The notes below the pieces were generated by a model. The model saw only the letters and a list, made by a program, of their open reading frames with translations, searched no databases and was not told the DNA's origin. This document shows positions 2,329-32,000 of a stretch of DNA of 32,000 nucleotides, piece after piece. Within the stretch, counting starts at the first letter, position 1; every line of letters starts with the position of its first letter. Both the position numbers and the translations under genes were made by a program. Origin of the DNA: Patescibacteria group bacterium (lineage in GTDB: Bacteria; Patescibacteriota; UBA1384; XYA2-FULL-43-10); contig JBAYVT010000003.1 in NCBI GenBank assembly GCA_041674405.1, forward strand, positions 119,990 through 151,989, in the 5' to 3' direction.

Positions 2329-2357
2329 ATTATATCTCCATTGAACACAATGCGCAA
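2329..2357 (-). promoter_or_regulatory. candidate ftsK promoter
   Basis: Minus strand reads TTGCGC (2357-2352), 17 nt, TATAAT (2334-2329). Confidence 0.4.
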
Positions 2358-2370
2358 TAAATGGTATCTT
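2341..2370 (+). promoter_or_regulatory. candidate promoter of ORF 2424, overlapping the divergent ftsK promoter
   Basis: TTGAAC (2341-2346), 18 nt, TGgTATCTT (extended -10, 2362-2370). RBS GGAAAGGA lies 6 nt before ATG 2424. Confidence 0.35.
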
Positions 2371-2423
2371 TAGTTTTAATCCGCTCTACGATAGCGGCAA
2401 CCTAGAACCGGAAAGGACAGACT

Positions 2424-2948
2424 ATGTTACCGTATCTTACGGTTTTGCTAGTAGCCGTAGTTGTGGTAGCAGTTGCAGTAACACTCGTGCGGTCAAGGAA
2501 TATTGCCGCATTCGCAGACAAGGCTGTTGCAGACCTTGCGTCGGGATCATGCGAGATCCGCTTCAGGCGGATCGAGCACACAATCGACGGCCATCATAGA
2601 GGAGTGCTGCTTATGATGTGCCTTCACGAACCGGTCGAGCGCTTTACGCGTCTTTCGATTATGCGTCGCGTTAGGGTTGTTGTTGAAGTCGAGGGAGAAT
2701 TCCCCTATCGTTGCACGCCCTACAAAATGGAACTCTCAGTGCGCGATGCCGACCTCGCTGGTGTTGCATACCTAACGCTAAGGGGCAAAACCCCTCTTTG
2801 GGTTGTCGATCCAGTCTGGAAGCATACGTTCGCAGTGCTCGTGCCCGAAAGCTTGCAACCAGGAGGGTCGGAGAAATTTATAACCCGAATAAGGGTAACT
2901 CTACCAACCTGGCCGAGTAAGCGTAAACTCGAGCTAACAATTCCTTAA
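2424..2948 (+). CDS. hypothetical protein, N-terminal TM anchor plus about 140-aa beta-rich domain (high-GC islet 1)
   Basis: 174-aa ORF with an RBS. N-terminus is LLVAVVVVAVAVTLV. GC is higher than the flanks, and a strong terminator follows. No family recognised. Confidence 0.55.
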   Translation: MLPYLTVLLVAVVVVAVAVTLVRSRNIAAFADKAVADLASGSCEIRFRRIEHTIDGHHRGVLLMMCLHEPVERFTRLSIMRRVRVVVEVEGEFPYRCTPYKMELSVRDADLAGVAYLTLRGKTPLWVVDPVWKHTFAVLVPESLQPGGSEKFITRIRVTLPTWPSKRKLELTIP

Positions 2949-2967
2949 GCCGCCCAGAACCGCGAAC

Positions 2968-2992
2968 GCCACCCCGGTCGGGGTGGCGTTTC
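2968..2992 (+). terminator. intrinsic terminator of ORF 2424
   Basis: GCCACCCC (2968-2975), loop GGTC, GGGGTGGC (2980-2987), then GTTTCC. Confidence 0.7.
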
Positions 2993-3052
2993 CACGTTAA
3001 ATTGCTATTTTGTTTTCCCTGCGGACTAAGGACTACTCACTACTATCTAGTC

Positions 3053-3082
3053 CTAAACCTCAATAACTACAAGGATGACCAC
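3053..3082 (-). repeat. decayed in-frame duplicate of the last 9 codons plus stop of rnj
   Basis: 3057-3082 matches 3159-3184 at 22/26 positions, offset by exactly 102 nt (34 codons). It reads VVILVVIEV-TAG versus the genuine MVIPVVIEV-TAA. Stops intervene between the two copies. Confidence 0.5.
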
Positions 3083-3154
3083 CCCACTTCGCCAAGGCTA
3101 CGCGGGGCAAGACTCATTTCAGAGCAAGAGTCGATAATAGATAATCGTTGTGCA

Positions 3155-5116: not shown

Positions 5117-5146
5117 TTAGTTTTTCCTTTAGTTCAAAAGAACATA

Positions 5147-5779
5147 TTATATTAGTTTTGTTTGAATTGGCTTATCGTCGTTATCTGGTTTGATATTCCC
5201 TTTAGTCTCCTGCTCTTTGATTTTTTTAAGAACCGCTGGTACTTTTTTAAAATCGTCCATAAGCGTGCCTCGCAATCCGCCATTGTGCAGGGCTGCCGCC
5301 GGGTGGTAGAGGGCGAAGTAAACTTGGCCATTCGGCCGTTTGACCGCTTTGCCATGGAGCTTAGAAATCCCACCTGCTGCCGGTATAAATGTATTGCATG
5401 AGTGCCGGCCGAGGCAAACGATGAGTTTGGGTTTTATAATTTCAAGTTGACGATTAAGATACGATTTGCAAGCCTCTTTCTCCGTATCTTCCGGATCCCG
5501 ATTTCCCGGGGGTCTACATTTTACCGTGTTTAGAATAAAAACTTTTTCACGTGTGAGGCCAATAGAGGCTAGCATTTCGTCTAAGAATTTTCCGGCGGCT
5601 CCGCAAAAAGGGATGCCTGCCAGATCTTCCTTCTCCCCCGGCGCTTCGCCAACAAAAAGTATGTCAGCGTCGGGGTCTCCGCTTCCAGGAACAGTATTAG
5701 TCCTTGATTTCGAAAGTGGGCATAGTGCACACTTAGAAACTTCACCTGCAATAATATCGAGTTCTTCTTTCTTATTCAT
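5147..5779 (-). CDS. udg: family 4 uracil-DNA glycosylase (4Fe-4S type)
   Basis: Motifs CxLC...FVGEAPGEKED...GIPFCGAAG...NTVKCRPP...LYHPAAAL. The ORF track extends to 5833, but MNKKEEL at 5779 fits the family length. Confidence 0.85.
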   Translation of the reverse strand: MNKKEELDIIAGEVSKCALCPLSKSRTNTVPGSGDPDADILFVGEAPGEKEDLAGIPFCGAAGKFLDEMLASIGLTREKVFILNTVKCRPPGNRDPEDTEKEACKSYLNRQLEIIKPKLIVCLGRHSCNTFIPAAGGISKLHGKAVKRPNGQVYFALYHPAAALHNGGLRGTLMDDFKKVPAVLKKIKEQETKGNIKPDNDDKPIQTKLI

Positions 5780-5844
5780 CAAAAAGAGAAATAAATGATT
5801 AAAAAATCGCTTAATTAGAGTCCTGTCCCTCAAAAGTTAATCTC

Positions 5845-5873
5845 ATTGTACCAGGTGCGAATAAAAAAGTCAA
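5845..5873 (-). promoter_or_regulatory. candidate udg promoter
   Basis: Minus strand reads TTGACT (5873-5868), 17 nt, TACAAT (5850-5845). Confidence 0.55.
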
Positions 5874-5888
5874 TAGATAAAGGTGGTG

Positions 5889-5909
5889 CCCCCGCCTAGA
5901 CGGCGGGGG
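5889..5909 (-). terminator. GC hairpin overlapping the stop codon of ORF 5896-6345
   Basis: CCCCCGCC (5889-5896) pairs with GGCGGGGG (5902-5909). The TAG stop sits in the loop. A T-rich stretch follows on the minus strand after a short gap. Confidence 0.5.
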
Positions 5910-6345
5910 GTTCGTGTTCGGTTGCCCGATCGGTGATCCGCTTAAACAAAGTTTCAACACCGATCAAAGGCATGGCTGCTTGGAATGCAGCCTGTATGGT
6001 TGTGCGGTCAAGCGGCTTCCATCCGCTCGAGCCGCATTGAACAAGCGCGCGGACTTGTTCAAAAAGTTGTTCCGTCGGGACCCTGCCGGTAGCATTGGTA
6101 TAGCCACCGGATATCCCGCCGCAGACTGAACGTGCTGTCAGCCTGAGAAGTTGGGCATTTGGTTCGCCTTGGGGCTTGTTCGTTCGGACAGACACGATTA
6201 GTCCTGTTCGGTTAGAATCATTCCAGAAGTAGAATTCGGATTCCTCGGTGCCATCATAGCTGCGCTGTCCCGTATAACATCCGATGTACCGATATCCGAG
6301 AGGCGCCAGCTTTCTCTGAAGCCTTTTCAGCGCTATCACCTCCAA
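5896..6345 (-). CDS. hypothetical protein (high-GC islet 2); start codon uncertain
   Basis: 149-aa ORF. A GGAGGTGAT anti-SD match sits at its extreme 5' end, so the true start may lie a few codons in. It has its own promoter and terminator. No family recognised. Confidence 0.5.
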   Translation of the reverse strand: MEVIALKRLQRKLAPLGYRYIGCYTGQRSYDGTEESEFYFWNDSNRTGLIVSVRTNKPQGEPNAQLLRLTARSVCGGISGGYTNATGRVPTEQLFEQVRALVQCGSSGWKPLDRTTIQAAFQAAMPLIGVETLFKRITDRATEHEPPAV

Positions 6346-6357
6346 GCGATCTAAATT

Positions 6358-6387
6358 AATATATCAATAAGAGTGACATAAATTCAA
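6358..6387 (-). promoter_or_regulatory. candidate promoter of ORF 5896-6345
   Basis: Minus strand reads TTGAAT (6387-6382), 18 nt, TATATT (6363-6358). Confidence 0.4.
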
Positions 6388-6592: not shown

Positions 6593-7207
6593 ATGAACAA
6601 GCTGTTGTTGGGCGTCTTGATCTCAGGAGGGGGCACCAACCTCCAAAAGATCATTGATCGTATCGGGGATGGCACCCTTTGTGCTGAGGTCGCTGTAGTG
6701 ATCTCGAACAAAACCGATGCTTACGGCCTCGAACGTGCCAGAAATGCTGGCATTCGGGCTGTATTCCTTGACCCGAAAAGCTTCTCCAGCAAGCACGAGT
6801 TCGACCAGGCAATAGCCGAGGAACTTCAGCACTCAGGCGTTCAGCTCGTGGTTATGGCCGGATACATGAGGCTGCTCGGCAAGGAAGTCCTCGACGCCTT
6901 CCCGGGCAAGGTAATCAATCTTCATCCCGCTCTGCTGCCCTCATTCAAGGGGGAGCACGGGATTGCGGATGCCTTCGCCTATGGGGTTAAGGTCACCGGG
7001 GTAACCGTGCATTTCGCCGATGGCGAGTATGACACTGGCCCCATTATCGCGCAAACGCCAATCGCTGTGCTTGAGGACGACACAGTGGAGTCGCTCGAGC
7101 AGCGCATTCATGATGCTGAGTACAAGATCCTACCTCGAGTCATCCAGTTATTCTCGGAGGGCCGCGTCAAGATCGATGGTCGCCGCATTCACATCGACCA
7201 GAGGTAA
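6593..7207 (+). CDS. purN: phosphoribosylglycinamide (GAR) formyltransferase
   Basis: 204 aa from the RBS-supported ATG 6593; the ORF-track start at 6491 lies in the promoter. Motifs ISGGGTNLQ, NLHPALLPSF and HFADGEYDTGPII. Confidence 0.85.
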   Translation: MNKLLLGVLISGGGTNLQKIIDRIGDGTLCAEVAVVISNKTDAYGLERARNAGIRAVFLDPKSFSSKHEFDQAIAEELQHSGVQLVVMAGYMRLLGKEVLDAFPGKVINLHPALLPSFKGEHGIADAFAYGVKVTGVTVHFADGEYDTGPIIAQTPIAVLEDDTVESLEQRIHDAEYKILPRVIQLFSEGRVKIDGRRIHIDQR

Positions 7208-19129: not shown

Positions 19130-19130
19130 T

Positions 19131-19181: not shown

Positions 19182-19511
19182 GTGAATGGCTTGCAGATCG
19201 CAACAGGAATCAACGTCTTCGCTGGTGCACTCGTCTCCCTTGCCGGAGTCCAGATTGACTCCTTGATGCCCAACTTCGCTGCCGAACCCGAGTTCGTTCG
19301 CCTCATTGCCGAGAAGTTCGATATTGACCGTCTCAGCACGATGGACGTACAACTGCCGTCCAAGCCAACCTGGCTAGACGTCCGGAAGGTCCTAAGATCC
19401 ACGGCCTTGGCCTGCCTCATCAACAAGGACGCAGATGTTCGCCCATACTATGGCGACCGGATTCATTGTCCCGAAGGGGTTGACCCTTCGGACATCTACT
19501 TCTACGTATAG
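19182..19511 (+). CDS. hypothetical protein (high-GC islet 3); start uncertain
   Basis: 109-aa ORF from GTG. It is GC-rich and followed by a strong terminator. No family recognised. Confidence 0.45.
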   Translation: MNGLQIATGINVFAGALVSLAGVQIDSLMPNFAAEPEFVRLIAEKFDIDRLSTMDVQLPSKPTWLDVRKVLRSTALACLINKDADVRPYYGDRIHCPEGVDPSDIYFYV

Positions 19512-22043: not shown

Positions 22044-22084
22044 GTCTTTTGTTCGCCACGATACTACGAAAGGGGCTGTTTTTC

Positions 22085-22720
22085 TTGAGATCATTCGGTT
22101 GCATGACGCCAATAGCCGTAATAGCCATAAGCTGTGCTGGAGTGATGACTCTCATGCAGGGGGCAAGAACGCACCAGCTCACCCTGATCCTGATGGGCAT
22201 TGCCGCGCTAGTAATGGCGAGATACCTAATCGCGATCGCCAACTACGGCAAACCCAAGATCTGCCGGCCAGGTGACTTTCCCAAGAAGTGCGAAGCTTTC
22301 GAGCAGATGCTCGAAAGAAAGTACGGCCAGCCAACCCCAAGAAAACCTCAGTATCTGAGGCCAACCCTTGAGGGATTCGGCATTACTAAGCTGTCCGTGC
22401 TTACGAGCTGTGCATTCCCCGATGGCGAAGGCCAGTCTTTTTGCCGAAGGGAAGCTCTGCTACCATCTGGCGAAGAAATCTGCCAGTTCCTGGACCAGAT
22501 GCTGAAATCCAAGGAGAATTGCGCAGTTGGCGACGAAGAAACCCGCTGCCAGCCGAATATCGAGATCATGGTCTATGGTGACATGGACCTGCACGCATTC
22601 CACGTTTGCGCTGCATTCTCGTATATGTCGAATGGCAATATAGTGCAAAATGTTGAGAGGCACTTCTACGGGGAACAACTATTCAAGATGATGCGAGGCT
22701 TCAACAGGAAGGCCTTCTAA
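22085..22720 (+). CDS. hypothetical Cys-rich protein with two N-terminal TM helices (high-GC islet 4)
   Basis: The ORF-track start at 22049 coincides with the predicted TSS. TTG 22085 lies 9 nt after GAAAGGGG, and ATG 22103 is the alternative start. Ten or more Cys residues sit in the soluble part. No family recognised. Confidence 0.5.
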   Translation: MRSFGCMTPIAVIAISCAGVMTLMQGARTHQLTLILMGIAALVMARYLIAIANYGKPKICRPGDFPKKCEAFEQMLERKYGQPTPRKPQYLRPTLEGFGITKLSVLTSCAFPDGEGQSFCRREALLPSGEEICQFLDQMLKSKENCAVGDEETRCQPNIEIMVYGDMDLHAFHVCAAFSYMSNGNIVQNVERHFYGEQLFKMMRGFNRKAF

Positions 22721-22796: not shown

Positions 22797-22825
22797 TTGA
22801 CATTTATGGCCAGATGTGGTAGTAT
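22797..22825 (+). promoter_or_regulatory. promoter of ORF 22888
   Basis: TTGACA (22797-22802), 17 nt, TGgTAGTAT (TAGTAT at 22820-22825). Confidence 0.6.
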
Positions 22826-22836
22826 GCAGCCACGTT

Positions 22837-22880
22837 GTTCGCCAACTATACCGTTCGCCACAGAACGGCGAACAAGGAGG
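22837..22880 (+). promoter_or_regulatory. 5' UTR with two competing GTTCGCC arms for one GGCGAAC arm that abuts the SD
   Basis: GTTCGCC occurs at 22837-22843 and 22853-22859. GGCGAAC is at 22867-22873 and AAGGAGG at 22874-22880. ATG is at 22888. Confidence 0.35.
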
Positions 22881-22887
22881 AGTCTGT

Positions 22888-23214
22888 ATGATTCAGACGT
22901 TGAATCTGACTGGCGCGTTGGGCCTCGCCCTTTTCGGAGCGTTGCTCGCGCTCATCGGCTTTCGCTTCGGCGGCGCCAGCGTGATGCGCTGGTTGGCAGC
23001 CGTCGCCATCGCCATCGCCGGCGGATGGTCGGGCTACATCTACGCCGTCGCCATCGAGGCTGACTGGGTCCATGGGGGCTACATGCTCCTGAAATGGACC
23101 GGAGCCTTCGAGCTCGGGATCGCCTGCGCTGGGGTACTGCTCTTCGGGGTAGGATCGCTGTTCCTTTGCGGTCCCAGCTTCCGGCGGAAGCAGACTGCCA
23201 GCGACGACACGTAG
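22888..23214 (+). CDS. hypothetical small integral membrane protein (3-4 TM helices)
   Basis: 108 aa from ATG 22888, with a perfect RBS AAGGAGGAG. The track start at 22816 lies in the promoter. Confidence 0.6.
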   Translation: MIQTLNLTGALGLALFGALLALIGFRFGGASVMRWLAAVAIAIAGGWSGYIYAVAIEADWVHGGYMLLKWTGAFELGIACAGVLLFGVGSLFLCGPSFRRKQTASDDT

Positions 23215-24256: not shown

Positions 24257-24727
24257 TCATGCGGTGGCAGCCGCCTTCGCAGGCTGATCGAACGATCGCT
24301 CGCCAGCCCAGGCATAAGCCGCCGCAACTGCCTTCTCGCATTCCCACTCAGGCTGGTGTGGGCTTAGAGGCACCCCTCCGCGGGCATGGTCTATTCCCGC
24401 AAGCACGTAATCGTCGAGAGTGCTGTAGTGATGCCACTCTGGAGCAGTACCCCATGGGGTCTGCTCAGCGATAATCGCCAATTCAGCCAAGTTCAGTGCG
24501 GTTGCACACGCACAGAATCGCGCATCATCCTGGGCTATCAAAGCAAGATCGCTGCCCAAGAGGATGGATTCGATATCATCGCGAAGCTGTTGTCCCGACT
24601 GAGAGCCGTCGAGATATGAGTTGTAGGTTGCCCCTCCTAGGGCAAACGCAGTTCGGCACTGGTTGTGTGTAAGAAGTGCTTCCCTCTCCGCGGGATCACT
24701 TGGAAACATCCTAAGAGCGCCCTCCAT
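24257..24727 (-). CDS. hypothetical protein downstream of nadV (high-GC islet 5)
   Basis: 156 aa from ATG 24727, with GAGGAGG 8 nt upstream. It has its own promoter and terminator. No family recognised. Confidence 0.5.
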   Translation of the reverse strand: MEGALRMFPSDPAEREALLTHNQCRTAFALGGATYNSYLDGSQSGQQLRDDIESILLGSDLALIAQDDARFCACATALNLAELAIIAEQTPWGTAPEWHHYSTLDDYVLAGIDHARGGVPLSPHQPEWECEKAVAAAYAWAGERSFDQPAKAAATA

Positions 24728-24804: not shown

Positions 24805-24830
24805 GGCCGTCCCGATTGCTCGGGACGGCC
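24805..24830 (-). terminator. strong terminator of the nadM-nadV operon
   Basis: GGCCGTCCCGA pairs with TCGGGACGGCC, a perfect 11 bp with a 4-nt loop, then ACTTTTGTTATTT on the minus strand. Confidence 0.85.
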
Positions 24831-24878: not shown

Positions 24879-26270
24879 CTAGATCGCCGCGCGCTCGCGG
24901 ATGTCCGCGAGAGTCTGGTCGATGAGGACCTCGCCATTCCGGAAGACCGGAATGAGAAGATCCTCGTAGCCCTGCACCGACGCGTCCTCTTGGCGCATCG
25001 TCGCATAGGCGTTGTCCTTATCGCAGACCAGGGCCAGCCGCCCGGCCTTCGAGCGCTTGCCCGGGTCAGTGACTGGGTCCTTCATCACGTCCTGCCAGCC
25101 GCCGTCGATCTGGACCGCGCTGCACTTGAAGGCGAACTTGCAGGTATCGCGGTTCATCTTCTGCAGGAGTCCGCCGCCGGAGCCGAAGGCGATGTTGTCA
25201 GCCGACCAGCCGGCAGCCTTCATCGTCTCGAGGATGGACCCAAGCATCGAGAAGTCGATGCCATCGCCCTGGATCACTCGGACTTTCGGGTTCAGGACTT
25301 TGAAGCCCTTGCCATTGACCTCGTAGCCGAAGGCTTCGCCCAGGGCTTCGAGGACATGCGGTACCACCAGGGTGGGGTTGCCGCTGTCCGGCCGGACGAC
25401 CAGGGTACCATCGCGCGAAAGGACCTCGCTCCGAAGCTGCTCGCCCCAGAGGCGGCTGCAGGCTTCGTAGATGTTGTAGCTGTCGGATACCACCGCCACC
25501 AGGCCGGAGGGGAAGGCGCGAAGCATATTGGCATAAGCCGCAACCTCGTTCTCCCGCCCCCACGAAGTGATGGTCGAGTGTTCCGCCGCCGGGATAGAGA
25601 ACCCTGCCATGCGCTCGCAGTAGTACTTGCGTGCCACGCGCAGCGCCTGCATCGTGTCGGTGCCCTGGAAGTTGACCAGATGGGCACAGCCTCCGATGCC
25701 CGCGGACTCGACCGTGGTCGAACCACGGAAGCCGAAGTCATGGAGCTTGAAGTTGATCCCGGCGGGGTCGCCGGTCTCCGTGAGATACCGGAGGATGATC
25801 CGCTTCATCTCGCGGCTCTGCGTCGCTACCGTGCACGGGTACCAGACCTGGCAGAGCAGCGTTTCAAGGTAGTTGGTCAGCCACGGAAGCTCGAGGTCGG
25901 TGTTCACCACCGTCATCATCACGTTGTGAGTTGGCACCGGCGTCCCCTCCGGAATAGCCCGGATCTCGACAGGCAGACACCCGCCGTGGACGTTGACGAT
26001 CCGCTCCCAGCCGGCTTGGTTGAACAGGCTTGTGTTGCCGAAGTGGAGCGCGAACTCCTCGCGCATCTCCTCGATGTCCTCGGCCGATACGACTGGGCCC
26101 GCGAGATAGCGCTTTGCGATGTACTGGAGGCCGAAGAAGACGACCTCCGGGAACTCGCCGCCTCGGCTCTCGTAGAAGGAGTAGACCCTCTGCGTCTGAG
26201 GCGGGTACTGCCGGAAGTGCGTCACCTTGTATGAATCCGTCGCTTCGATTAGGTTGAACTCTTTCATCAT
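24879..26270 (-). CDS. nadV: nicotinamide phosphoribosyltransferase (NAMPT)
   Basis: Motifs ATDSYKVTH, KLHDFGFRGSTT, VRVIQGDGI and AFGSGGGLLQ. The ATG at 26270 is favoured by AAGGA spacing (track start is 26276). GC3 is very high. Confidence 0.92.
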   Translation of the reverse strand: MMKEFNLIEATDSYKVTHFRQYPPQTQRVYSFYESRGGEFPEVVFFGLQYIAKRYLAGPVVSAEDIEEMREEFALHFGNTSLFNQAGWERIVNVHGGCLPVEIRAIPEGTPVPTHNVMMTVVNTDLELPWLTNYLETLLCQVWYPCTVATQSREMKRIILRYLTETGDPAGINFKLHDFGFRGSTTVESAGIGGCAHLVNFQGTDTMQALRVARKYYCERMAGFSIPAAEHSTITSWGRENEVAAYANMLRAFPSGLVAVVSDSYNIYEACSRLWGEQLRSEVLSRDGTLVVRPDSGNPTLVVPHVLEALGEAFGYEVNGKGFKVLNPKVRVIQGDGIDFSMLGSILETMKAAGWSADNIAFGSGGGLLQKMNRDTCKFAFKCSAVQIDGGWQDVMKDPVTDPGKRSKAGRLALVCDKDNAYATMRQEDASVQGYEDLLIPVFRNGEVLIDQTLADIRERAAI

Positions 26271-26297
26271 TCTCATCCTTTCGTCTCTGTTTCAAAT

Positions 26298-27185
26298 CTA
26301 CTTCGCGATGTATGCCTTGAGCATCTTCCCGAGCGGCAGATGATAATCTGCCAGGACCGCCTCAATCTCGTCGATCGGCACCCACGCGACAGCATCGATG
26401 TCGTCTCTCGCCTTGGCGTAGCCCCAGGTCCGGTGAGTGATGAACATGTGAGTCATCACCACATCCGGGGTGCCATGGTAGCGCCAATCGTCGATCTTGG
26501 TCGAGCCAATGTAGATGAAGGGGCCTTCGGTGCAGAGCCCTTCGACTTCCTCGTGGAGTTCACGGCTTGCTGCCGCTTCGAGCGAAGTGTCATCCGGATC
26601 GATGAAGCCACCGACGAAGCACTTCTTGCCCTGCTCGCGACTCTTCGTCGCAAGCAGAACTTCGCCTTCGTCGTTCATGACGGCCACATCGACCGTCACG
26701 TAGACCCGTGGTGTCCGAGTCTCTTCGCGGTAGATGATCCCGGCCCGAAAGTCGGGAGTGACGCTCACCCGCTCAGCGATCTGCGCCCGAGCGGAGGTGC
26801 CGTTGTCGTGGCACCGAGGCTCAAACACCTCAGTCGCGAAGTGTCCACCATAGACCCCAAAGAACGAATCCCTGGAGCCATAGAGGACAACATCGCAGCC
26901 GTGACAACGTTCGGCGATCAGCGCATCGAGCGTCTCCGACCAGTAAGCATCGGAGAGTTGGTCAGGTAGGCCGATGATCTCGACCTCCGGATATGCCTCC
27001 CGCACCATCGCCTCCCGCATGTGATATTCCAGCGGGTTGCGGTTGGTCGGAAGCGAACCGGGGATGCCTAGGACTACGAGCACCCGCTCACATTGCGCAA
27101 GCGCATACTCGATGAGGTCGCAGTGCCCCTGATGAAGCGCGGCGACCTGGAAACGGGCGACGACCACTCCGACTTTCTTGGTCAT
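26298..27185 (-). CDS. nadM: bifunctional NMN adenylyltransferase (NadM type) / ADP-ribose pyrophosphatase (Nudix)
   Basis: The N-terminus VVVARFQVAALHQGH is the (H/T)xGH nucleotidyltransferase motif. The C-terminus has an intact Nudix box, GGFIDPDDTSLEAAASRELHEEVEG. Confidence 0.9.
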   Translation of the reverse strand: MTKKVGVVVARFQVAALHQGHCDLIEYALAQCERVLVVLGIPGSLPTNRNPLEYHMREAMVREAYPEVEIIGLPDQLSDAYWSETLDALIAERCHGCDVVLYGSRDSFFGVYGGHFATEVFEPRCHDNGTSARAQIAERVSVTPDFRAGIIYREETRTPRVYVTVDVAVMNDEGEVLLATKSREQGKKCFVGGFIDPDDTSLEAAASRELHEEVEGLCTEGPFIYIGSTKIDDWRYHGTPDVVMTHMFITHRTWGYAKARDDIDAVAWVPIDEIEAVLADYHLPLGKMLKAYIAK

Positions 27186-27250
27186 TTTCGATCCCTCTTC
27201 CTTTGTTAATGTGCCTCTCGGAAGGACGCTTAACGATTCCCGAGTTACTT

Positions 27251-27267
27251 AGTGTATATGTTACACC
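27251..27267. promoter_or_regulatory. NrtR operator candidate 1 (over the TSS)
   Basis: AGTGT-ATATGTT-ACACc, with a GT-N7-AC core, preceded by CTT. Confidence 0.55.
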
Positions 27268-27275
27268 TTGGCATA

Positions 27276-27304
27276 GTTATACTCTCACCTCGTCTTAGTG
27301 TCAA
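27276..27304 (-). promoter_or_regulatory. nadM-nadV promoter
   Basis: Minus strand reads TTGACA (27304-27299), 17 nt, TATAAC (27281-27276). The -35 lies inside operator 2 and operator 1 covers the TSS. Confidence 0.55.
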
Positions 27305-27313
27305 TGCTACACT
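27297..27313. promoter_or_regulatory. NrtR operator candidate 2 (over the -35)
   Basis: tAGTGT-CAATGCT-ACACTa, with 6-bp perfect arms and a GT-N7-AC core. Confidence 0.6.
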
Positions 27314-27329
27314 ATGTATTATATACACT
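27313..27329. promoter_or_regulatory. weaker third operator-like site
   Basis: taTGT-ATTATAT-ACActa. The TGT-N7-ACA core is conserved but the outer arms are degenerate. Confidence 0.3.
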
Positions 27330-27363
27330 ATCTCCTGGCTTTCATCAGTCCTGGAGCTGATAA

Positions 27364-27473: not shown

Positions 27474-28172
27474 TCAGATTATCTCAATATCCTTTATTGT
27501 TTCGGAGGCGAATTTGTAAAGCTGCGCCGGTCGATATGGTTCCCCGGTTTGCTTCTCGGAGAGTTCCTTAAGGACTTTGATTTTAGCAATTTTTTTACGA
27601 AAATTGCGCTTATCTTGCGGCACCCCCAGAATTTCCTCATATGCCTTCTCAAGCATTCCCAGCGTAAATTCTTTCGGCATTAGTTTCTGTATTAAGGTCG
27701 TGTAGCTAACCCTAGACCTTAGGCGCTTCAAAGCCTCAAAAAGCATCTCGTCGTGATCATATGAGAGCGGCTTAGCATCACCAACTTTAGCCCACCATGA
27801 TTCTGGAGTATCTTTTCTCTCTTTTTCGGAAAGTTTTTCCCATGGCACCATGGCAAGGTATGAAACTGACACCACCCTACCACGTGGATCACGATTCACA
27901 GCACTAAATGTGCGAAGTTGCTCTATATATAACTTTTTTTCAGAAACACCAGCTTTATCTTTGATAATGCGAACCGCCGCCTCTTCTGCTGTTTCCGTGG
28001 GACGGATCAAGCCTCCGGGAAAACCCTTGCTTCCCGCAGGAAATGCCGGCGGGCGATCAACGGCGATCAGGCGAACCACTAGCTCACCATCGCGTAGAGA
28101 AAACAAAACTACGTCGGTGGCAAGCACCGCAAACTTCAAATGTTCAGGTTTTGGACTCGGATATTTCTTCAT
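27474..28172 (-). CDS. nrtR: NrtR, Nudix-related transcriptional regulator of NAD metabolism
   Basis: 232 aa. The Nudix fold has a degenerate box, GGLIRPTETAEEAAVRIIKDKAGV (RE changed to RI, EE changed to KD). The C-terminal wHTH reads FTLGMLEKAYEEILGVPQDKRNFRKKI...YRPAQLYKF. Confidence 0.88.
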   Translation of the reverse strand: MKKYPSPKPEHLKFAVLATDVVLFSLRDGELVVRLIAVDRPPAFPAGSKGFPGGLIRPTETAEEAAVRIIKDKAGVSEKKLYIEQLRTFSAVNRDPRGRVVSVSYLAMVPWEKLSEKERKDTPESWWAKVGDAKPLSYDHDEMLFEALKRLRSRVSYTTLIQKLMPKEFTLGMLEKAYEEILGVPQDKRNFRKKIAKIKVLKELSEKQTGEPYRPAQLYKFASETIKDIEII

Positions 28173-28176
28173 ACTT

Positions 28177-28193
28177 AGTGTTAATAATATGAT
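28177..28193. promoter_or_regulatory. operator half-site over the nrtR -10/TSS (possible autoregulation)
   Basis: It shares the 8-mer CTTAGTGT (28174-28181) with operators 1 and 2. The right arm is degenerate (ATGAT). Confidence 0.3.
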
Positions 28194-28217
28194 AACCCTA
28201 ATTTACCTCTTCGTCAA
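28189..28217 (-). promoter_or_regulatory. candidate nrtR promoter
   Basis: Minus strand reads TTGACG (28217-28212), 17 nt, TATCAT (28194-28189). Confidence 0.5.
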
Positions 28218-28267
28218 TGCGCCTAGGCAGTCTTAAACTGGTGTGATTTTCTCGGTCGAAAATAATT

Positions 28268-29056: not shown

Positions 29057-29213
29057 CGATCCTCTACCTAATCATTTTAAAATACTAGATTATTTGTCTA
29101 TCGTGTGGATTAGGATTAAATTTTTTAATCACTTTAGTTCACAAAAATATTTTTTGCTCATCAATACAATTGACATTTCAATTCTACCACAATGCCAAAA
29201 ATACTGAATCTCA

Positions 29214-29242
29214 TTCACATTCAGCCTCAAATCTGCTAGAAT
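29214..29242 (+). promoter_or_regulatory. candidate promoter of ORF 29283 / ychF
   Basis: TTCACA (29214-29219), 17 nt, TAGAAT (29237-29242). Confidence 0.5.
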
Positions 29243-29282
29243 GAATCTGTTACTGGCGGATCTAACTATCAAGGAGAGACAA

Positions 29283-29642
29283 ATGGACCCAAGGGAACCA
29301 AGAGGCATTCCTACCGAGCCGGAAAGAGATTCTGACGAACCATCATTTGACAGAGAACATATTGAGCGATTATCCAATGCAGAACTAGTTATTGGATATG
29401 TGGTTTTCAATGAGCTATTTGGCATCCTGACCGATCCTTTTACAGCCGAAGATACTTCAGGATTGAGAAAATTACTAGAACACAGGTTGGTCGCCAAAGT
29501 CCAAGCCAGAGAAGAAATAACACCTGCAAATTTTCAGGCGAAATTGCCGTTGCTCACAGAAGAAGTCAAGCGAACAATCGGAATATTTGAGAGCATTCTG
29601 ACCGAGCGAGGATATGACATCAGTGGTCAGGAACAACATTAA
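29283..29642 (+). CDS. hypothetical acidic protein
   Basis: 119 aa from ATG 29283, with RBS AAGGAGAG. The track start at 29241 lies in the promoter. No family recognised. Confidence 0.5.
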   Translation: MDPREPRGIPTEPERDSDEPSFDREHIERLSNAELVIGYVVFNELFGILTDPFTAEDTSGLRKLLEHRLVAKVQAREEITPANFQAKLPLLTEEVKRTIGIFESILTERGYDISGQEQH

Positions 29643-29669
29643 GACGATAAACAAGGAGCGATCATTTCT

Positions 29670-30749
29670 TTGCAAATAGGCATTGTTGGACTTCCTAACG
29701 TAGGTAAATCGACGTTGTTTAACGCCCTTATTTGCGGTGCCAAGGCCGATGCCCAGAATTATCCTTTCTGCACTATTGAGCCGAATGTCGGCGTAGTCGA
29801 GGTGCCGGATGAGCGCCTGAAACCACTTACCGAAATTTCGAAATCGAAGAAAATCGTGCCTACAGTAATCGAATTCGTCGACATCGCCGGTCTGGTCCGT
29901 GGCGCGAACAAGGGAGAGGGACTCGGGAATCAATTCCTTGCCCATATCCGCGAGTGCGATGCGATCGCCATGGTTGTCCGTATGTTCGAGGACCCGAATA
30001 TCGTCCATGTCGAAGGTAAAATTGATCCTGTCGAGGATATCAAAACGATCGAGACCGAGCTTCAGCTGGCTGATATTTCGACTGTTGAGAAGCGCTTATT
30101 TTCTGTTGAAAAAGAACTCAAATCGGGATCGAAGGAAGCCCAAGCAACGCACCATGCGCTGCAGAAGCTCAAAGACGAGCTCTATGCCGGCAAAAACGCC
30201 CGAGCGGCAGGACTTTCCAAGGAAGAAAAAGAAGCGGTTAAAGGGCTTTCTCTTCTAACATCGAAACCTATTCTGTATATAGCCAATTGTTCAGAGGAGC
30301 AACTCAAAAATTGGTCTTCCCTACAGACTAAGGACTACAAACTACCAACTGAATTGATCCCCATTTCTGCCAAGATTGAGAGCGATCTCAATGAGCTTGA
30401 CGAGTCTGAAAAGCAAGAATACCTCGAGACTCTAGGGATGGAAGATTCAGGCCTAAACCGATTGATCAAAGAGGCCTACAAAACACTCGGGCTTATCACC
30501 TATTTCACCTCCGGTGAGCCGGAAACTCGTGCCTGGACGATCAAGGAAGGTACTCTCGCCCCGCAAGCGGCTGGCGTGATCCACACCGATTTTGAGCGTG
30601 GCTTTATTGCCGCTGAAGTGATCCCCTGGCAGGACCTCGTAGCTAATGGTGGCTGGTCCGCGTCTCGCACCAAAGGCCTCGTCCGCACCGAAGGAAAAAC
30701 TTACATCTTCAAAGACGGAGACGTCGCACTATTCAGATTCAATGTGTAA
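29670..30749 (+). CDS. ychF: ribosome-binding ATPase YchF
   Basis: 359 aa with a TTG start. Motifs GIVGLPNVGKSTLFNAL, FVDIAGLVRGA and the C-terminal TGS-like region ERGFI.AEV. Confidence 0.93.
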   Translation: MQIGIVGLPNVGKSTLFNALICGAKADAQNYPFCTIEPNVGVVEVPDERLKPLTEISKSKKIVPTVIEFVDIAGLVRGANKGEGLGNQFLAHIRECDAIAMVVRMFEDPNIVHVEGKIDPVEDIKTIETELQLADISTVEKRLFSVEKELKSGSKEAQATHHALQKLKDELYAGKNARAAGLSKEEKEAVKGLSLLTSKPILYIANCSEEQLKNWSSLQTKDYKLPTELIPISAKIESDLNELDESEKQEYLETLGMEDSGLNRLIKEAYKTLGLITYFTSGEPETRAWTIKEGTLAPQAAGVIHTDFERGFIAAEVIPWQDLVANGGWSASRTKGLVRTEGKTYIFKDGDVALFRFNV

Positions 30750-30766
30750 TCAATAATATTCTTGAC

Positions 30767-30803
30767 AAAATGGCAGAAAATATTGCTTTTACTGCCATTT
30801 TTT
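30767..30803 (+). terminator. ychF terminator
   Basis: AAAATGGCAG (30767-30776) pairs with CTGCCATTTT (30792-30801) around a 15-nt loop, followed by a T-run. Confidence 0.7.
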
Positions 30804-30857
30804 GATAGTGTCTCTGCGAGCGAAGACGTACAAAACTACCCGAAGGGTGTGAACGCA

Positions 30858-32000
30858 ATGTATCAAAATATCTCGTTGCAGGTAGGGCTGGTGATGCTCG
30901 CGTACCTGCTGGGGTCGCTCCCCTTTGGGTACTGGTTCGGAAAGTTCGCGAAAGGTGGCGCATTCGATATCCGGAACTACGGTTCTGGTAATATCGGTTT
31001 CACCGCCATTGGGCGCGAAGTGAGCTGGGGAATCGCTATCCCGGTGCTGATCTTTGACGCACTCAAAGCTTGGGGGCCAGTAACACTGGCCAAAGCCGAG
31101 TTTGGCGTCGATTTCGGCATGCTGTGTCTCATCTTCGTCATGTTGGGCCACGCATATTCTCTGTACTTCTGGGTCACAGAGAAGCACCCTGGAGGCGGCA
31201 AGTCTGTTGCAGCCGCTCTGGGAGGCATCGTCGCCCTACACCCTGCAATAGCCGGCTGGAGCCTGGTCATCTGGGCAATCATCCTGCTATGCACCCGGAC
31301 CATGTCCATAGCCTCGATGTTGGGAAGCGTCTGTGCTTTCCTACTGACCTTACGTATTCACATCGGTCTGGGGCTCGACGTATCCTTCGGCTATGGCCTG
31401 GGACTGACCTGGAACATCTTCTTCGGCCTAGTGAGTGCGCTGATCGTCTACTTCCACAAGCGTAACATTGGCCGTCTCTTGCATCGCAACGAGAAGCCAT
31501 TGTTTGAGTGGAGAGACATATGCAAACTCTGGCAGAAGAGGCAAACCGTCCAAGACAATGAACTAGTCGTCTGGTTCATGATTCACCCGTTGCAGTGGAG
31601 CGACCTGATGCAATCCGTACTCATATGGTGGATCTACTGGATGGGTAAATGGCCACGGAGTGCCAGGATCGGCATCTGGATACTCTCCGTTCTGCCAGTC
31701 ATCGAGAACGCAGAGGTCACCGGCATCACCCTGAAAGACGAGAGACAGACCCGGGTCAAGATCAAAACCGGCGCCATCCTTTACCTCTCAGGGATGATCG
31801 AAGTAGTGAAGCTAGCAGAAGAGGTTGACGCTGGTCGCATGAAGGTGGGCTATGGGGAAGGCGAGGTTTCGCCAGAGCTGTACAAGAAGGCCTCACTACT
31901 TCGTGACCGGTTGTGGAAGCGCTTACAGAGCGGTACGGTGCAAGGGCGCCGCATCGGCTCTCACGTCGCGGGGCTAGGGGCACTCCTCTCCACCAGGTTC
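30858..32000 (+). CDS. plsY: glycerol-3-phosphate acyltransferase PlsY fused to a C-terminal COG5322/acyl-ACP-reductase-like domain; 3' end leaves the window
   Basis: Absent from the ORF track because it is open-ended. I translated 381 codons with no stop. The PlsY part (about 1-212) carries LLGSLPFGYW, YGSGNIGFTA, FDALKA, GHAYSLYF...GGGKSVAAALG and HKRNIGRLLHRNEK. Residues from about 235 onward read VVWFMIHPL ... VAGLGALLST. Confidence 0.85.
   Translation, partial: MYQNISLQVGLVMLAYLLGSLPFGYWFGKFAKGGAFDIRNYGSGNIGFTAIGREVSWGIAIPVLIFDALKAWGPVTLAKAEFGVDFGMLCLIFVMLGHAYSLYFWVTEKHPGGGKSVAAALGGIVALHPAIAGWSLVIWAIILLCTRTMSIASMLGSVCAFLLTLRIHIGLGLDVSFGYGLGLTWNIFFGLVSALIVYFHKRNIGRLLHRNEKPLFEWRDICKLWQKRQTVQDNELVVWFMIHPLQWSDLMQSVLIWWIYWMGKWPRSARIGIWILSVLPVIENAEVTGITLKDERQTRVKIKTGAILYLSGMIEVVKLAEEVDAGRMKVGYGEGEVSPELYKKASLLRDRLWKRLQSGTVQGRRIGSHVAGLGALLSTRF

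Follow-up and report, generated by a model that had tools for sequence, protein, structure and literature searches.

GC-rich accessory genes in an AT-leaning Patescibacteria backbone: a case for old lateral gains from several sources

Accessory genes can hold a composition of their own over long periods (PMC1557990), and single-gene transfer, mainly from CPR to CPR, is frequent among Patescibacteria (PMC12455944). The closest precedent for the locus described here comes from rhizobia, with their "accessory pool with its own composition"; our case differs from it in having the opposite sign and in working at the scale of single genes. The locus, a stretch of 32,000 nucleotides (the window), has the backbone of a Berkelbacteria-like CPR (Patescibacteria) genome, that of a small symbiont-type bacterium, interrupted by six GC-rich blocks. 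On balance, we favor a model whereby these islets are old lateral genes from several sources, whose GC-rich composition is heritable and actively maintained within the AT-leaning CPR backbone.

The GC mosaic and its support

The genomes closest to the backbone are Candidatus Berkelbacteria MAGs (exonuclease identity 64-72%), the exo53-polA-holA-DUF2207-lepB-DHH-rpsO-pnp gene order of the window is conserved, and its Pfam content comprises a split PolA/5'-3' exonuclease, FtsK, RNase J, PNPase, S15, holA and lepB. A DUF5677 gene is an AT-rich outlier in the window (GC 0.33). The six GC-rich blocks of the original prediction are confirmed as a real mosaic: the GC counts quoted for it are exact (26/60 at 8881-8940 and 37/60 at 25081-25140), and pooled GC is 0.565 in the blocks, which make up 24% of the window, vs 0.433 in the rest.

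Block 1, 2424-2992, GC 0.536
Block 2, 5889-7270, GC 0.513
Block 3, 19182-19577, GC 0.566
Block 4, 22085-23290, GC 0.565
Block 5, 24218-27185, GC 0.599
Block 6, 30858-32000, GC 0.556

By gene, GC is 0.33-0.50 (GC3 0.30-0.54) in the backbone and 0.52-0.63 (GC3 0.51-0.85) in the islets, the GC3 peak of 0.85 comparing with ~0.44 for the backbone; islets 1 (orf174, GC3 0.51) and 2a (orf149, GC3 0.56) are weak. The compositional steps match the boundaries of islet genes exactly, much as had been proposed, and in 25-codon bins they are sharp: GC3 is evenly high from first to last in nadV (0.76-0.92 in each bin), plsY and purN, and the rise does not extend to nrtR, ychF, udg or pnp. The codon shift is uniform across all amino acids, a generic "high-GC" usage. 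A GC-independent dinucleotide signature deviates from the backbone only in nadM-nadV (z = 3.1), plsY (2.6) and orf159 (2.0), and no foreign signature of this kind was found in islets 1 and 2a, purN, orf109 or islet 4.

The proposed AT-richness of the spacers holds for the three originally cited (6346-6592, GC 0.34; 24737-24804, GC 0.31; 27186-27473, GC 0.37) and fails for three others inside or beside islets (22721-22815, GC 0.61; 23215-23480, GC 0.50; 2949-3154, GC 0.51). That every islet has its own promoter and terminator is likewise true in part, promoter-like hexamers lying upstream of seven of the ten islet genes and clear hairpins 3' of nadV, orf149, orf109 and purN only. Mobile-element scars are indeed absent: the window has no tRNA gene and no Rfam match, a domain search of its proteins found no integrase or transposase, and a repeat search found none of the islets to lie between direct repeats.

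Because the source is a metagenome-assembled genome, foreign GC-rich reads might have been chimerically joined into a CPR contig during assembly or binning. We consider this highly improbable. An independent Logan contig from SRR6484325 does stop at 23433, close to where islet 4 ends on the right, but is 100% identical to the window over 23433-32000, a span that takes in islets 5 and 6 together with the junctions of both (the window itself ends at the NCBI contig end). Moreover, the same mosaic lies at orthologous positions in at least eight contigs from different studies and assemblers, the steps fall at start and stop codons, and native putative NrtR operators would drive the GC-rich operon.

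The nadM-nadV cassette and its regulatory region

Islet 5 and its surroundings contain the following features.

24257..24727, reverse strand: islet 5a, orf159, a 156-aa soluble Ala-rich orphan, GC 0.58
24805..24830, reverse strand: strong hairpin 3' of nadV resembling an intrinsic terminator, 11-bp stem with 9 G-C pairs, then a T-run
24879..26276, reverse strand: islet 5b, nadV, nicotinamide phosphoribosyltransferase, GC 0.63, GC3 0.85
26298..27185, reverse strand: islet 5c, nadM-Nudix, a divergent NMN adenylyltransferase fused to Nudix, GC 0.60, GC3 0.74
27248..27345, reverse strand: AT-rich promoter and putative NrtR-operator region upstream of nadM, inverted repeat I22, two boxes
27474..28172, reverse strand: nrtR regulator, Pfam NrtR_WHD and NUDIX, GC3 0.44

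The nadV assignment comes from NF006629 (612 bits) and Pfam NAMPT_N and NAPRTase, and that of nadM-Nudix from Pfam NUDIX with a weak CTP_transf_like match; matches of the latter to the NCBIfam bifunctional NadM-Nudix models are weak, under the model cut-offs. Upstream of nadM, in a spacer that aligns with L027 at 73%, lie a promoter-like site (27345-27318) and the two putative NrtR-operator boxes, ATAGTGTAGCATTGACACTAA and AAGGTGTAACATATACACTAA, with a GT-N7-AC core (motif as defined in PMC2330246); similar boxes occur in L026, L040 and Kaiserbacteria. The orphan orf159 (GAGGAGG Shine-Dalgarno; promoter-like site 24793-24766; AF2 model pLDDT 47) is also among the genes called on Logan contig L001, where its length is again 156 aa.

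nadM lies 5' of nadV without exception in relatives, Kaiserbacteria and the phage contig L041, and the pair is GC-rich in the same slot in 6/6 clade genomes. nrtR is functionally part of islet 5 and compositionally backbone, with a GC3 of 0.42-0.48 in all six and 0.72 in Kaiserbacteria. GC3 values are as follows.

Window: nrtR.44, nadM.74, nadV.85
L026: nrtR.42, nadM.53, nadV.67
L027: nrtR.48, nadM.78, nadV.85
L039: nrtR.46, nadM.63, nadV.74
L040: nrtR.42, nadM.74, nadV.85
L127: nrtR.48, nadM.61, nadV.68

The best NadV homologues are 65-73% identical, and every named one is CPR, plus a phage; by these similarities NadM-NadV appears to be a member of a CPR-wide, also phage-borne, NAD-salvage cassette. 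The nrtR-nadM-nadV module of a Kaiserbacteria genome with 59.5% GC is almost as similar as the in-clade copies, and backbone protein identity drops to 41-50% outside the clade. Across 45 viral loci, nadV GC tracks that of its genome (r = 0.95; offset +0.03 ± 0.03, vs +0.08 to +0.17 in the clade), and GC-richness is therefore not intrinsic to nadV.

These data bear on a tentative alternative, a migration-amelioration balance or recurrent in-situ replacement, in which the GC-rich genes would be overwritten again and again by xenologous alleles, drawn from a mobile pool of high GC that is supplied either by GC-rich CPR (Kaiserbacteria, for example) or by cassette-carrying phages. Repeated overwriting would explain why the genes never equilibrate, and homology confined to the gene or cassette would explain the gene-precise edges, much as when hosts and phages exchange auxiliary metabolic genes. 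For nadM-nadV, replacement under retained native regulatory DNA is conceivable: the AT-rich spacer holding the NrtR operator is conserved, and phage-like L041 carries only that pair, at identities roughly inside the clade's own ranges (NadM 45-55%, NadV 69-74%; in-clade 44-58% and 71-80%). The closeness of the Kaiserbacteria module also fits, as do the AT-type nrtR and operator spacer beside GC-type coding sequences, the frequent transfer among Patescibacteria (PMC12455944) and a NadV tree that is nearly an unresolved star (bootstrap of the in-clade group ≤ 2.5%). However, the L041 cassette (GC3 0.60-0.64) is less GC-rich than its cellular counterparts, which reach 0.85, no nadV copy in IMG/VR exceeds 65% identity, and the ~72-75% nucleotide identity between known copies is too low for homologous recombination. 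Residual synonymous identity is 0.13-0.23 among clade copies and ~0 with Kaiserbacteria or phage, no near-identical GC-native donor for any of the six lineages was found among 5.8 billion clusters, and purN, plsY and the small slot families are not naturally covered.

Distances between nadV copies are correlated with those between nrtR copies (Mantel r = 0.50, p = 0.037) and those between nadM copies are not (r = -0.06), a point that also suits replacement, so a strictly vertical, single-origin nadM-nadV cannot be claimed as proven. In the backbone tree, L026, with the module, branches deeper than the L002 group, without it; ancestral presence followed by loss therefore fits.

purN, plsY and the small slot genes

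The remaining islets comprise two further metabolic genes and several orphans.

2424..2948, forward strand: islet 1, orf174, ORFan with an N-terminal membrane helix, GC 0.52, GC3 0.51
5889..5909, no strand: 3'-end hairpin of orf149 at the left edge of islet 2, 8 G-C pairs, CCCCCGCC-TAGAC-GGCGGGGG
5896..6345, reverse strand: islet 2a, orf149, soluble orphan, GC 0.54, GC3 0.56
6593..7207, forward strand: islet 2b, purN, GAR formyltransferase, GC3 ~0.65; TIGR00639 at 232 bits, Pfam PF00551
7280..7333, no strand: bidirectional hairpin between convergent purN and pnp, inverted repeat I3, 25-nt arms, 84% complementary
19182..19511, forward strand: islet 3, orf109, small gene in the polA/holA gap on the opposite strand, GC 0.55, GC3 0.68
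22049..22720 (likely start 22103), forward strand: islet 4a, orf223, Cys-rich, two membrane helices, GC3 0.63
22816..23214, forward strand: islet 4b, orf132, three hydrophobic segments, GC 0.62, GC3 0.76
30858..32000, forward strand: islet 6, plsY fusion (PlsY with a C-terminal extension), GC 0.56, GC3 0.70; Pfam G3P_acyltransf

purN (promoter-like site 6518-6547) also occupies the udg/pnp slot of the closest relative, L042, with a GC3 of 0.67 vs 0.36-0.47 in its neighbours, and same-slot GC-richness is clear in two of three genomes. The closest named non-clade homologues of PurN are from Coriobacteriia/Actinobacteria (Actinomycetota-type); homologue L126, at 64% identity, belongs to a 67% GC genome. 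The adjacent orf149 (promoter-like site 6387-6358; AF2 model unusable, pLDDT 51) is missing from L042, where the layout is udg, 193 bp, purN, and the nucleotide alignment is interrupted at 5876-6597 of the window vs 105 bp in L042. In the suggested synteny comparison, orf149 is a clean insertion/deletion relative to the closest relative, the sole demonstrated indel among islet genes. The proposed accessory, lateral origin of islet genes, set in a conserved housekeeping backbone, is upheld.

The plsY fusion gene is cut by the contig end (the NCBI record labels the protein "partial", on a contig of 151,989 bp), and its homologues are ~600 aa long with a Rossmann-like C-terminal domain. It adjoins ychF in 3/3 genomes, with a GC3 of.70 in the window,.72 in L027 and.66 in L045 (ychF.38-.54), and positional identity is 36-52% for plsY vs 71-79% for ychF, an unusual divergence of GC-rich positional orthologues that recurrent replacement would accommodate. 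The family is tiny, and a homologue search of 5.8 billion clusters found no donor.

For orf174 (Shine-Dalgarno GGAAAGGA upstream; one hydrophobic segment), no homologue besides itself was found among 1.84 billion protein representatives and no match in Pfam, NCBIfam, PHROG or PADLOC. The polA/holA gap of orf109 (hairpin 19557-19572) holds, in L004, L006 and L007, a family of 116-119 aa in the same orientation (mutual identity 34-36%; GC 0.50-0.54 vs backbone 0.40; ΔGC3 = +0.10), to which a small search gave orf109 a weak match (E = 4e-4, 27% identity across 79 aa). No homologue of orf223 (promoter-like site 22016-22043, 11/12 matches) was found in relatives, whose slot upstream of exo53 holds its own GC-rich ORF family (ΔGC3 +0.17). 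orf132, with GGAGGAG ahead of an internal ATG and a promoter-like site at 22797-22825, likely encodes a 108-aa protein with three membrane helices starting at 22888; domain and family searches matched no database family. Calling the six orphans mostly membrane-anchored was an overstatement, helices being predicted in three. Counterparts of orf174, orf223, orf132 and orf159 were not found in relatives, and only such lineage-specific orphans, orf149 included, look comparatively recent as gains.

Age and maintenance of the GC excess

In a family-level GC3 test (15 loci, 20 families, 125 genes; ~20 kb examined per relative), 14 backbone families have a ΔGC3 of -0.04 to +0.02 and six are consistently at +0.10 to +0.28; the offset is a family trait (ANOVA F = 20, p ~1e-26, ICC 0.75). 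ΔGC3 exceeds +0.12 in 34% of lineage-specific ORFs vs 0% of widely conserved genes. nadM-nadV, plsY, purN and, more weakly, the polA/holA-gap gene are GC-rich in the same slot in relatives that have reached saturation of dS in the backbone and a dS of 0.9-1.6 or more in nadV, and 4-fold sites are only 0-0.23 more identical than composition alone predicts. The same families being GC-rich in the same slots of near-saturated relatives, the excess is probably not an unameliorated relic of recent transfer.

Recent, repeated gene-sized imports from one high-GC donor, possibly the host of an episymbiont, are accordingly improbable, and for nadM-nadV, plsY and purN this reading is already contradicted. 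The uniform high-GC codon usage, the gene-precise edges, the Actinomycetota-type nearest non-CPR relatives of PurN, the absence of orf149 from the closest relative and the five other orphans without counterpart (orf109 having a weak match only) would all suit it. Yet at least four of the six islets recur in relatives with the same slot and excess, and the sources are heterogeneous, the named relatives of NadV being CPR, a phylum in which a host is not plausible. NadV, PurN and PlsY searches of 5.8 billion clusters brought up no near-identical donor that is itself GC-rich; the best non-self matches are 73%, 78% and 50% identical, respectively, and where the context of the best ones is usable, they come from syntenic relatives of AT type. 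Neither the single donor or host nor the recency of the original prediction is therefore supported. Vertical inheritance with the same GC, which it had set against lateral gain, is seen in part: for nadM-nadV (6/6), plsY (3/3) and purN (closest relative), and less clearly for the orf109 slot family. These comparisons show most islet acquisitions to be, in all likelihood, old, preceding the clade radiation or common within the clade. NadM, PlsY and the slot families diverge far more than their neighbours (36-58% vs 70-79%), a pattern that xenologous replacement could equally yield.

In a simple relaxation model, with the GC3 of the backbone (~0.44) taken as neutral equilibrium for every gene, ~0.36-0.5 of the ancestral GC deviation would be left today, and a present GC3 of 0.85 needs an ancestral GC3 > 1. 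Given that assumption, a GC3 of 0.85 in three lineages rules out passive amelioration, and the composition must therefore be maintained or renewed.

In our favored model of old gains from several sources, single genes or two-gene units would have been acquired laterally, at different times and from different GC-rich sources, entering intergenic slots of the AT-leaning informational backbone scar-free. purN may come from an Actinomycetota-like lineage, as its homologues suggest, nadM-nadV from a NAD-salvage cassette circulating among CPR classes and phages and wired to the resident NrtR operator, and the plsY fusion from a small family. GC-rich codon usage would then be a heritable, actively maintained property of each gene family, for which the candidate causes are selection that acts on the synonymous composition of particular genes, GC-biased gene conversion, and a mobile GC-rich pool from which the same genes are re-seeded time and again.

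Compositional mosaic of the window

The window as a whole has a GC content of 46.5%, ranging from 0.29 to 0.65 in 300-bp windows, and the six GC-rich blocks (islets), which cover 24% of it, have GC contents of 0.51–0.60 (pooled 0.565 versus 0.433 for the remainder). The 60-nt counts quoted in the original prediction were reproduced exactly (26/60 GC at 8881–8940 and 37/60 at 25081–25140). In a gene map built from ORFs together with Pfam, NCBIfam and PHROGs scans, the islets hold orf174 (islet 1), orf149 and purN (islet 2), orf109 (islet 3), orf223 and orf132 (islet 4), orf159, nadV and nadM-Nudix (islet 5) and a plsY fusion (islet 6). The AT-leaning backbone between them comprises ftsK, rnj, udg, pnp, rpsO, rpsT, lepB, holA, nrtR and ychF and genes for a DHH phosphoesterase, a 1273-aa surface protein, DUF2207, a PolA domain, a 5'-3' exonuclease, a VTT/DedA protein and DUF5677. 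Backbone genes have a GC of 0.33–0.50 and a GC3 (GC at third codon positions) of 0.30–0.54 versus 0.52–0.63 and 0.51–0.85 for islet genes, islets 1 and 2a (orf149) being weak cases. In 25-codon bins, nadV has a GC3 of 0.76–0.92 throughout, plsY and purN are evenly high from the first bin to the last, and none of the excess spills into nrtR, ychF, udg or pnp. The shift in codon usage affects all amino acids (Phe TTC from 0.30 to 0.91, Ile ATC from 0.33 to 0.90, Lys AAG from 0.35 to 0.85) and is a generic high-GC signature; a GC-independent dinucleotide signature departs from the backbone only in nadM-nadV (z = 3.1), plsY (z = 2.6) and orf159 (z = 2.0).

Further features of the window
2212–2323: long AT-rich imperfect inverted repeat (41-nt arms, 76% complementary) in the ftsK/orf174 spacer, upstream of orf174
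6593: true start of PurN
11785–12045 (+): 86-aa ORF in the 622-bp gap between the DHH and large surface protein genes; conserved in 9 loci, backbone composition
12099–15920 (−): gene for the 1273-aa surface protein (Laminin_G_3, fn3, DUF2341, PAP-N) between lepB and DHH, with internal DNA repeats at 14437–14827 and 14605–14768
19650–21988 (−): DNA polymerase I, split into 5'-3' exonuclease and polymerase-domain genes and lacking a 3'-5' exonuclease domain
24816–26234 (+): 472-aa ORF antisense across nadV; not a gene
28268–29056 (−): DUF5677 gene, an AT-rich outlier (GC 0.33, GC3 0.30) adjoining nrtR
30858–32000 (+): plsY fusion, a "partial" protein at NCBI, at the end of the 151,989-bp Patescibacteria contig

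The antisense ORF is an expected by-product of the nadV GC3 of 0.85, which leaves few stop codons, and a gene caller that favors the longest ORF would choose the wrong strand here. Three spacers within or adjoining islets are GC-rich, promoter-like hexamers lie upstream of seven of the ten islet genes, and clear hairpins follow nadV, orf149, orf109 and purN.

Several causes of the mosaic could be ruled out. Translational selection does not account for a shift that is uniform over amino acids, and the genes for ribosomal proteins, EF-P and GroEL of these genomes use AT-type codons. A strand or regional effect would not let GC-rich and AT-type genes alternate along one strand over stretches of a few hundred bases. 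GC-rich non-coding RNA explains none of the islets, Rfam returning no match in the window. The window is also free of tRNA and tmRNA genes, of direct (att) repeats bracketing any islet and, among ORFs of at least 80 aa scanned with Pfam, NCBIfam and PHROGs, of integrase, recombinase, transposase or other mobility domains. The reported absence of mobile-element scars around the islets was thereby borne out, and without integrase, tRNA and att repeats they cannot be read as classical genomic islands. No phage structural, replication or lysis genes are adjacent in the window; a phage-type context was seen only on a separate contig, L041. Finally, an assembly artefact is likewise ruled out: window 23433–32000 is matched at 100% identity by a Logan contig from SRR6484325, and the same mosaic recurs in contigs of other studies. 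This independently assembled contig stops in the intergenic region between orf132 and the VTT gene, next to islet 4, the slot of which differs in content among relatives, and its end at 23433 may reflect strain-level variation at the junction.

Relatives and the histories of individual islets

With the 5'-3' exonuclease (exo53) as query, 24 loci were found in species-representative genomes, the nearest being Candidatus Berkelbacteria-type CPR MAGs at 64–72% identity, and the gene order exo53-polA-holA-DUF2207-lepB-...-DHH-rpsO-pnp is kept in eight of these relatives. At E < 1e-5, no islet gene has a detectable counterpart in any of the eight. Each relative carries GC-richer small genes of its own in the same intergenic positions (slots), namely the polA/holA gap, upstream of exo53, lepB/DHH and DHH/rpsO. 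In the polA/holA gap, the proteins of L004, L006 and L007 are mutually 34–36% identical and weakly match orf109 of the window (E = 4e-4); this family is conserved at the protein level and therefore coding, which rules out a non-coding reading of it. The proteins encoded upstream of exo53 in L002, L006 and L007 are likewise mutually homologous, and other GC-rich genes in relatives encode PlsX, a PyrD-like DHODH, UbiA, an M23 peptidase and Amidase_3. The GC mosaic as it was first described is confirmed.

We made several further observations. Members of the GC-rich class lie at L045 3058–3864, 7475–8191 and 13155–15164 and at L002 641–1708 and 18550–19458; AT-type genes such as gpsA, ychF and those for ribosomal proteins are interspersed, on one strand, with the UbiA, M23 peptidase, Amidase_3, PlsX and PyrD-like genes. 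Relatives have extra genes between the parts of the split polA (e.g., L005 6429–6806, L006 4546–4839, L007 8171–9202 and L008 11168–11752). Their lepB/DHH slot holds unrelated small genes, often GC-rich; the large accessory surface protein gene in this slot of the window matches the backbone in composition, which shows that accessory genes are not GC-rich without exception. The DUF5677 gene is missing from its slot in relatives, L026 having Fic and SocA there, which are likewise AT-rich, and it is probably a further accessory insertion of opposite compositional sign. None of the orphans, nor DUF5677 or orf133, matched a defense system in PADLOC. The 86-aa ORF looks like ribosomal protein S20 (rpsT), judging by eye from its N-terminal sequence.

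In the NAD-salvage islet, NadV scores 612 bits against NF006629 (cut-off 405) and matches Pfam NAMPT_N and NAPRTase, and NrtR matches NrtR_WHD (Pfam, E = 1.8e-21). NadM has a clear Nudix domain, a weak N-terminal cytidylyltransferase-like match (E = 8e-4) and scores far under the cut-offs of the NCBIfam bifunctional models; its architecture and its position 5' of nadV are conserved. The AT-rich nrtR/nadM spacer, 73% identical to that of L027, contains, at about 27248–27313, two palindromes with the GT-N7-AC core of the NrtR operator motif (Rodionov et al. 2008, PMC2330246). Relatives and Kaiserbacteria have similar boxes as well, and these putative NrtR operators in a conserved AT-rich spacer would mean that the GC-rich operon is driven by AT-type regulatory DNA clade-wide. 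The arrangement resembles the NrtR-regulated nadM-nadV salvage II operon (PMC2330246) in that nrtR adjoins nadM-nadV and the palindrome core is shared, but differs from it in the short NadM (295 aa), under the NCBIfam cut-offs, and in the sharply different composition of regulator and target. In six genomes, nrtR has a backbone-like GC3 of 0.42–0.48, while nadM has 0.53–0.78 and nadV 0.67–0.85.

Context of the NAD genes in relatives
L026: ychF...nrtR-nadM-nadV...exo53-polA
L027: plsY fusion-ychF...nrtR-pnuC-AAA28-nadM-nadV
L040: ychF...nrtR-nadM-nadV...exo53
L039 and L127: nrtR-nadM-nadV

The best non-self NadV homologues are 65–73% identical, and all named ones are CPR (Kaiserbacteria, Campbellbacteria, Parcubacteria, Liptonbacteria and Pacebacteria). 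In a Kaiserbacteria genome (L029/L030, 59.5% GC), the entire nrtR-nadM-nadV operon is compositionally native. Window NrtR is 61% identical to the Kaiserbacteria protein (61–68% in the clade) and NadV 70% (71–73% in the clade), whereas backbone proteins fall to 41–50% outside the clade; this near in-clade similarity is indicative of exchange between CPR classes at the level of the module. The phage-like contig L041 (JGI 3300068441, Ga0613821_001284, 1–16136; DnaC-like loader, RusA, PAPS reductase, sigma factor, repressor) carries the nadM-Nudix-nadV pair alone, without the rest of the module and with a GC3 of only 0.60–0.64. Its proteins are 69–74% (NadV) and 45–55% (NadM) identical to clade copies, about as near to most of them as these are among themselves, and L041 may represent a CPR phage with an NAD-salvage auxiliary cassette. 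A metagenome scan with NadV was of no use for synteny, its eight loci coming mainly from non-CPR genomes to which nadV is compositionally native. When viral sequences were scanned by exact words, NadV, orf159 and orf223 gave a single distant match or none; the alignment-based scan of IMG/VR with NadV gave more than 560 matches, the best 65% identical, and no phage reservoir nearer than the cellular copies, so that these loci served only for a control of composition.

PurN has close homologues of 69–78% identity on short contigs and then a 60–66% group, the four named members of which are all Actinobacteria/Coriobacteriia; one of these, at 64% identity, is encoded on a contig of 1.66 Mb and 67% GC, where purN has a GC3 of 0.87. 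The closest relative found, L042 (RNase J 82% and UDG 85% identical), has the order rnj-udg-purN-pnp, with a purN GC3 of 0.67 versus 0.36–0.47 for its neighbors. It lacks orf149: udg and purN are 193 bp apart, and the alignment breaks at window 5876–6597 against 105 bp in L042. Between the window and L042, synonymous divergence of purN falls between the values of its two neighbors. The purN of L043 (69% identical) is moderately GC-rich, with a GC3 of 0.55 in a contig of 45% GC. The plsY fusion belongs to a tiny family of three proteins at 47–50% identity (stand-alone PlsY at most 38%), and in L027 and L045 it is likewise next to ychF and GC-rich (0.72 and 0.66). These proteins of about 600 aa occur on a handful of contigs only (P0242–P0244, L027 1–1617, L045 10001–11848), gpsA following in L045, and their C-terminal extension of about 400 aa weakly matches Rossmann-type families (Shikimate_DH, 2-Hacid_dh, THF_DHG). 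The orphans match no family in any library (Pfam, NCBIfam, PHROGs, PADLOC). A search of 1.84 billion representatives with orf174 returned only itself, and the other orphans have good Shine-Dalgarno motifs. The orphans had been described as mostly membrane-anchored, and membrane helices are predicted in three of the six only. Single-sequence AF2 models of orf149 (pLDDT 51) and orf159 (pLDDT 47) were too poor for a fold search.

Age and persistence of the GC-rich state

The deviation is a property of gene families. In a ΔGC3 test covering 15 loci, 20 families and 125 genes, 14 backbone families deviate by −0.04 to +0.02 and six families by +0.10 to +0.28 in every genome sampled (F = 20, p ~1e-26, ICC 0.75). 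The direction is the same in divergent genomes (nadV GC-rich in 6/6, plsY in 3/3), and ΔGC3 exceeds +0.12 in 34% of lineage-specific ORFs versus 0% of widely conserved genes. Accessory genes are patchily distributed, the slot contents differing among L002–L009. The GC excess is no inherent property of nadV, whose GC tracks that of the genome across 45 viral loci (r = 0.95) with an offset of +0.03 ± 0.03, compared with +0.08 to +0.17 in the clade.

Recent independent imports of the islet genes are unlikely because searches of 5.8 billion clusters with NadV, PurN and PlsY found no near-identical GC-native donor (best non-self matches 73%, 78% and 50%); in the GC-native genomes that were found, the copies are only 64–70% identical. 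Clade copies share 44–80% amino-acid identity, too divergent for a recent common donor. For backbone genes, dS from the window to relatives is saturated, and the apparent dS of nadV (0.9–1.6) is an underestimate at that composition. At conserved residues, identity at 4-fold sites exceeds compositional expectation by 0.13–0.23 for nadV in the clade, by about 0 against Kaiserbacteria and phage and by −0.04 to 0.21 for ychF. In a simple relaxation model, the residual deviation per lineage is about the square root of this excess, roughly 0.36–0.5; with a GC3 of 0.85 today and an equilibrium of 0.44, the model would require an ancestral GC3 above 1. On this model, passive amelioration after a single old transfer is therefore excluded, unless islet genes have a different equilibrium.

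In the backbone tree, the window pairs with L005 (76% bootstrap) and adjoins the L002–L007 group, and the module-bearing L026 branches deeper. The simplest reading is that the NAD module was present ancestrally and was lost from its slot in L002, where ychF and vtt are about 1 kb apart. A serious rival is that islet genes were recurrently replaced, including by phage-mediated re-seeding. It would fit the unusual divergence of GC-rich positional orthologues, the failure of nadM distances to co-vary with those of nrtR and the star-like NadV tree, which, with a bootstrap of at most 2.5% for in-clade monophyly, we dropped as proof of a single origin; the backbone tree, however, fits an ancestral module, and nrtR and nadV distances do co-vary (Mantel r = 0.50, p = 0.037).

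Altogether, the best-supported model is one whereby the islets would stem from old, gene-sized acquisitions from several sources, the foreign GC-rich composition having become a heritable family trait across the clade. Of the gene-sized acquisition proposed originally, the lateral origin thus stands and the recency does not, given that nadM-nadV (L026, L027, L040), plsY (L027, L045) and purN (L042) share the same slots and the searches with NadV, PurN and PlsY turned up no near-identical donor. Nor is a single or host donor upheld: the named NadV relatives are CPR, the named 60–66% PurN relatives Actinobacteria/Coriobacteriia, and the search with PlsY yielded no donor. Comparison for empty sites gave a mixed outcome, orf149 being absent in L042 and the NAD block in L002, and nadM-nadV, plsY and purN being occupied in other relatives. 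We further speculate, as a possibility that we rate somewhat below even, that CPR genomes of this clade are divided into two compositional compartments at single-gene resolution. In the second, genes for metabolism and the envelope that came in laterally would possess a much higher equilibrium GC3 (up to 0.85 versus 0.44), actively maintained far past synonymous saturation. Candidate maintaining forces would be selection on the synonymous composition of particular genes, GC-biased gene conversion and continual phage- or transformation-mediated re-seeding.

Known systems and implications

Compositional anomaly is routinely taken as a sign of recent HGT, and amelioration is used for dating transfers. 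In the amelioration model that Lawrence and Ochman are said to have put forward in 1997, compositional deviation marks lateral genes and decays towards the host. As in classical islands and this model, the deviation here marks laterally acquired genes; unlike in them, the genes do not form multi-gene islands, they deviate towards GC rather than AT and the predicted decay is not seen. Vibriophage KVP40 reportedly encodes a NadV/NatV NAD-salvage pair. Phage NadV and NadM/Nudix pairs (PHROG 448) involve the same two genes, on L041 and on more than 560 IMG/VR contigs, but the window copy is chromosomal, predicted to be NrtR-controlled and syntenic, and the closest viral copies are 65–69% identical to it versus 70–73% for cellular CPR copies.

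In the Rhizobium leguminosarum genome, nod genes are consistently lower in GC3 than any host (Young et al. 2006, PMC1557990). As in this accessory pool (PMC1557990), a composition apart from the core persists across divergent hosts and divergence excludes a recent radiation, the argument in both cases being for persistence instead of a recent transfer yet to ameliorate. The sign, however, is reversed, the accessory genes of the window being GC-richer than the core; its units are single genes or two-gene operons among housekeeping genes rather than plasmids or tRNA-associated islands; and GC3 offsets reach +0.4 versus about 5–25 points in the rhizobial pool, in the reduced genome of a CPR host. 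Single-gene HGT in Patescibacteria is mostly from CPR to CPR, with some from other phyla including Actinomycetota, and a mean donor-recipient divergence of ~24% indicates that most events are not recent (mSystems 2025, PMC12455944). The islets resemble these transfers as single-gene HGT into CPR; that study assumes that ancient transfers turn invisible by amelioration, whereas the anomaly in the window outlasts synonymous saturation and is conserved per family. In targeted searches of the literature on GC-rich or horizontally acquired genes in Berkelbacteria/Patescibacteria, we found no description of this pattern.

If the anomaly were taken as recent, the gain of key gap-filling functions (NAD salvage, purine and lipid steps) by ultra-small symbionts would be wrongly dated, and false links to hosts could be implied. 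Our analysis also brings to notice a phage-borne nadM-nadV cassette that lies inside the diversity of cellular CPR copies. If the GC-rich state is actively maintained, amelioration-based dating of HGT would fail systematically in the CPR genomes of this clade, and neighboring genes, one in the same regulon, that are 0.4 apart in GC3 would constitute a clean natural system. Such a system could separate synonymous selection, biased gene conversion and gene flow, and would thus bear on the long-standing question of what determines bacterial GC content.
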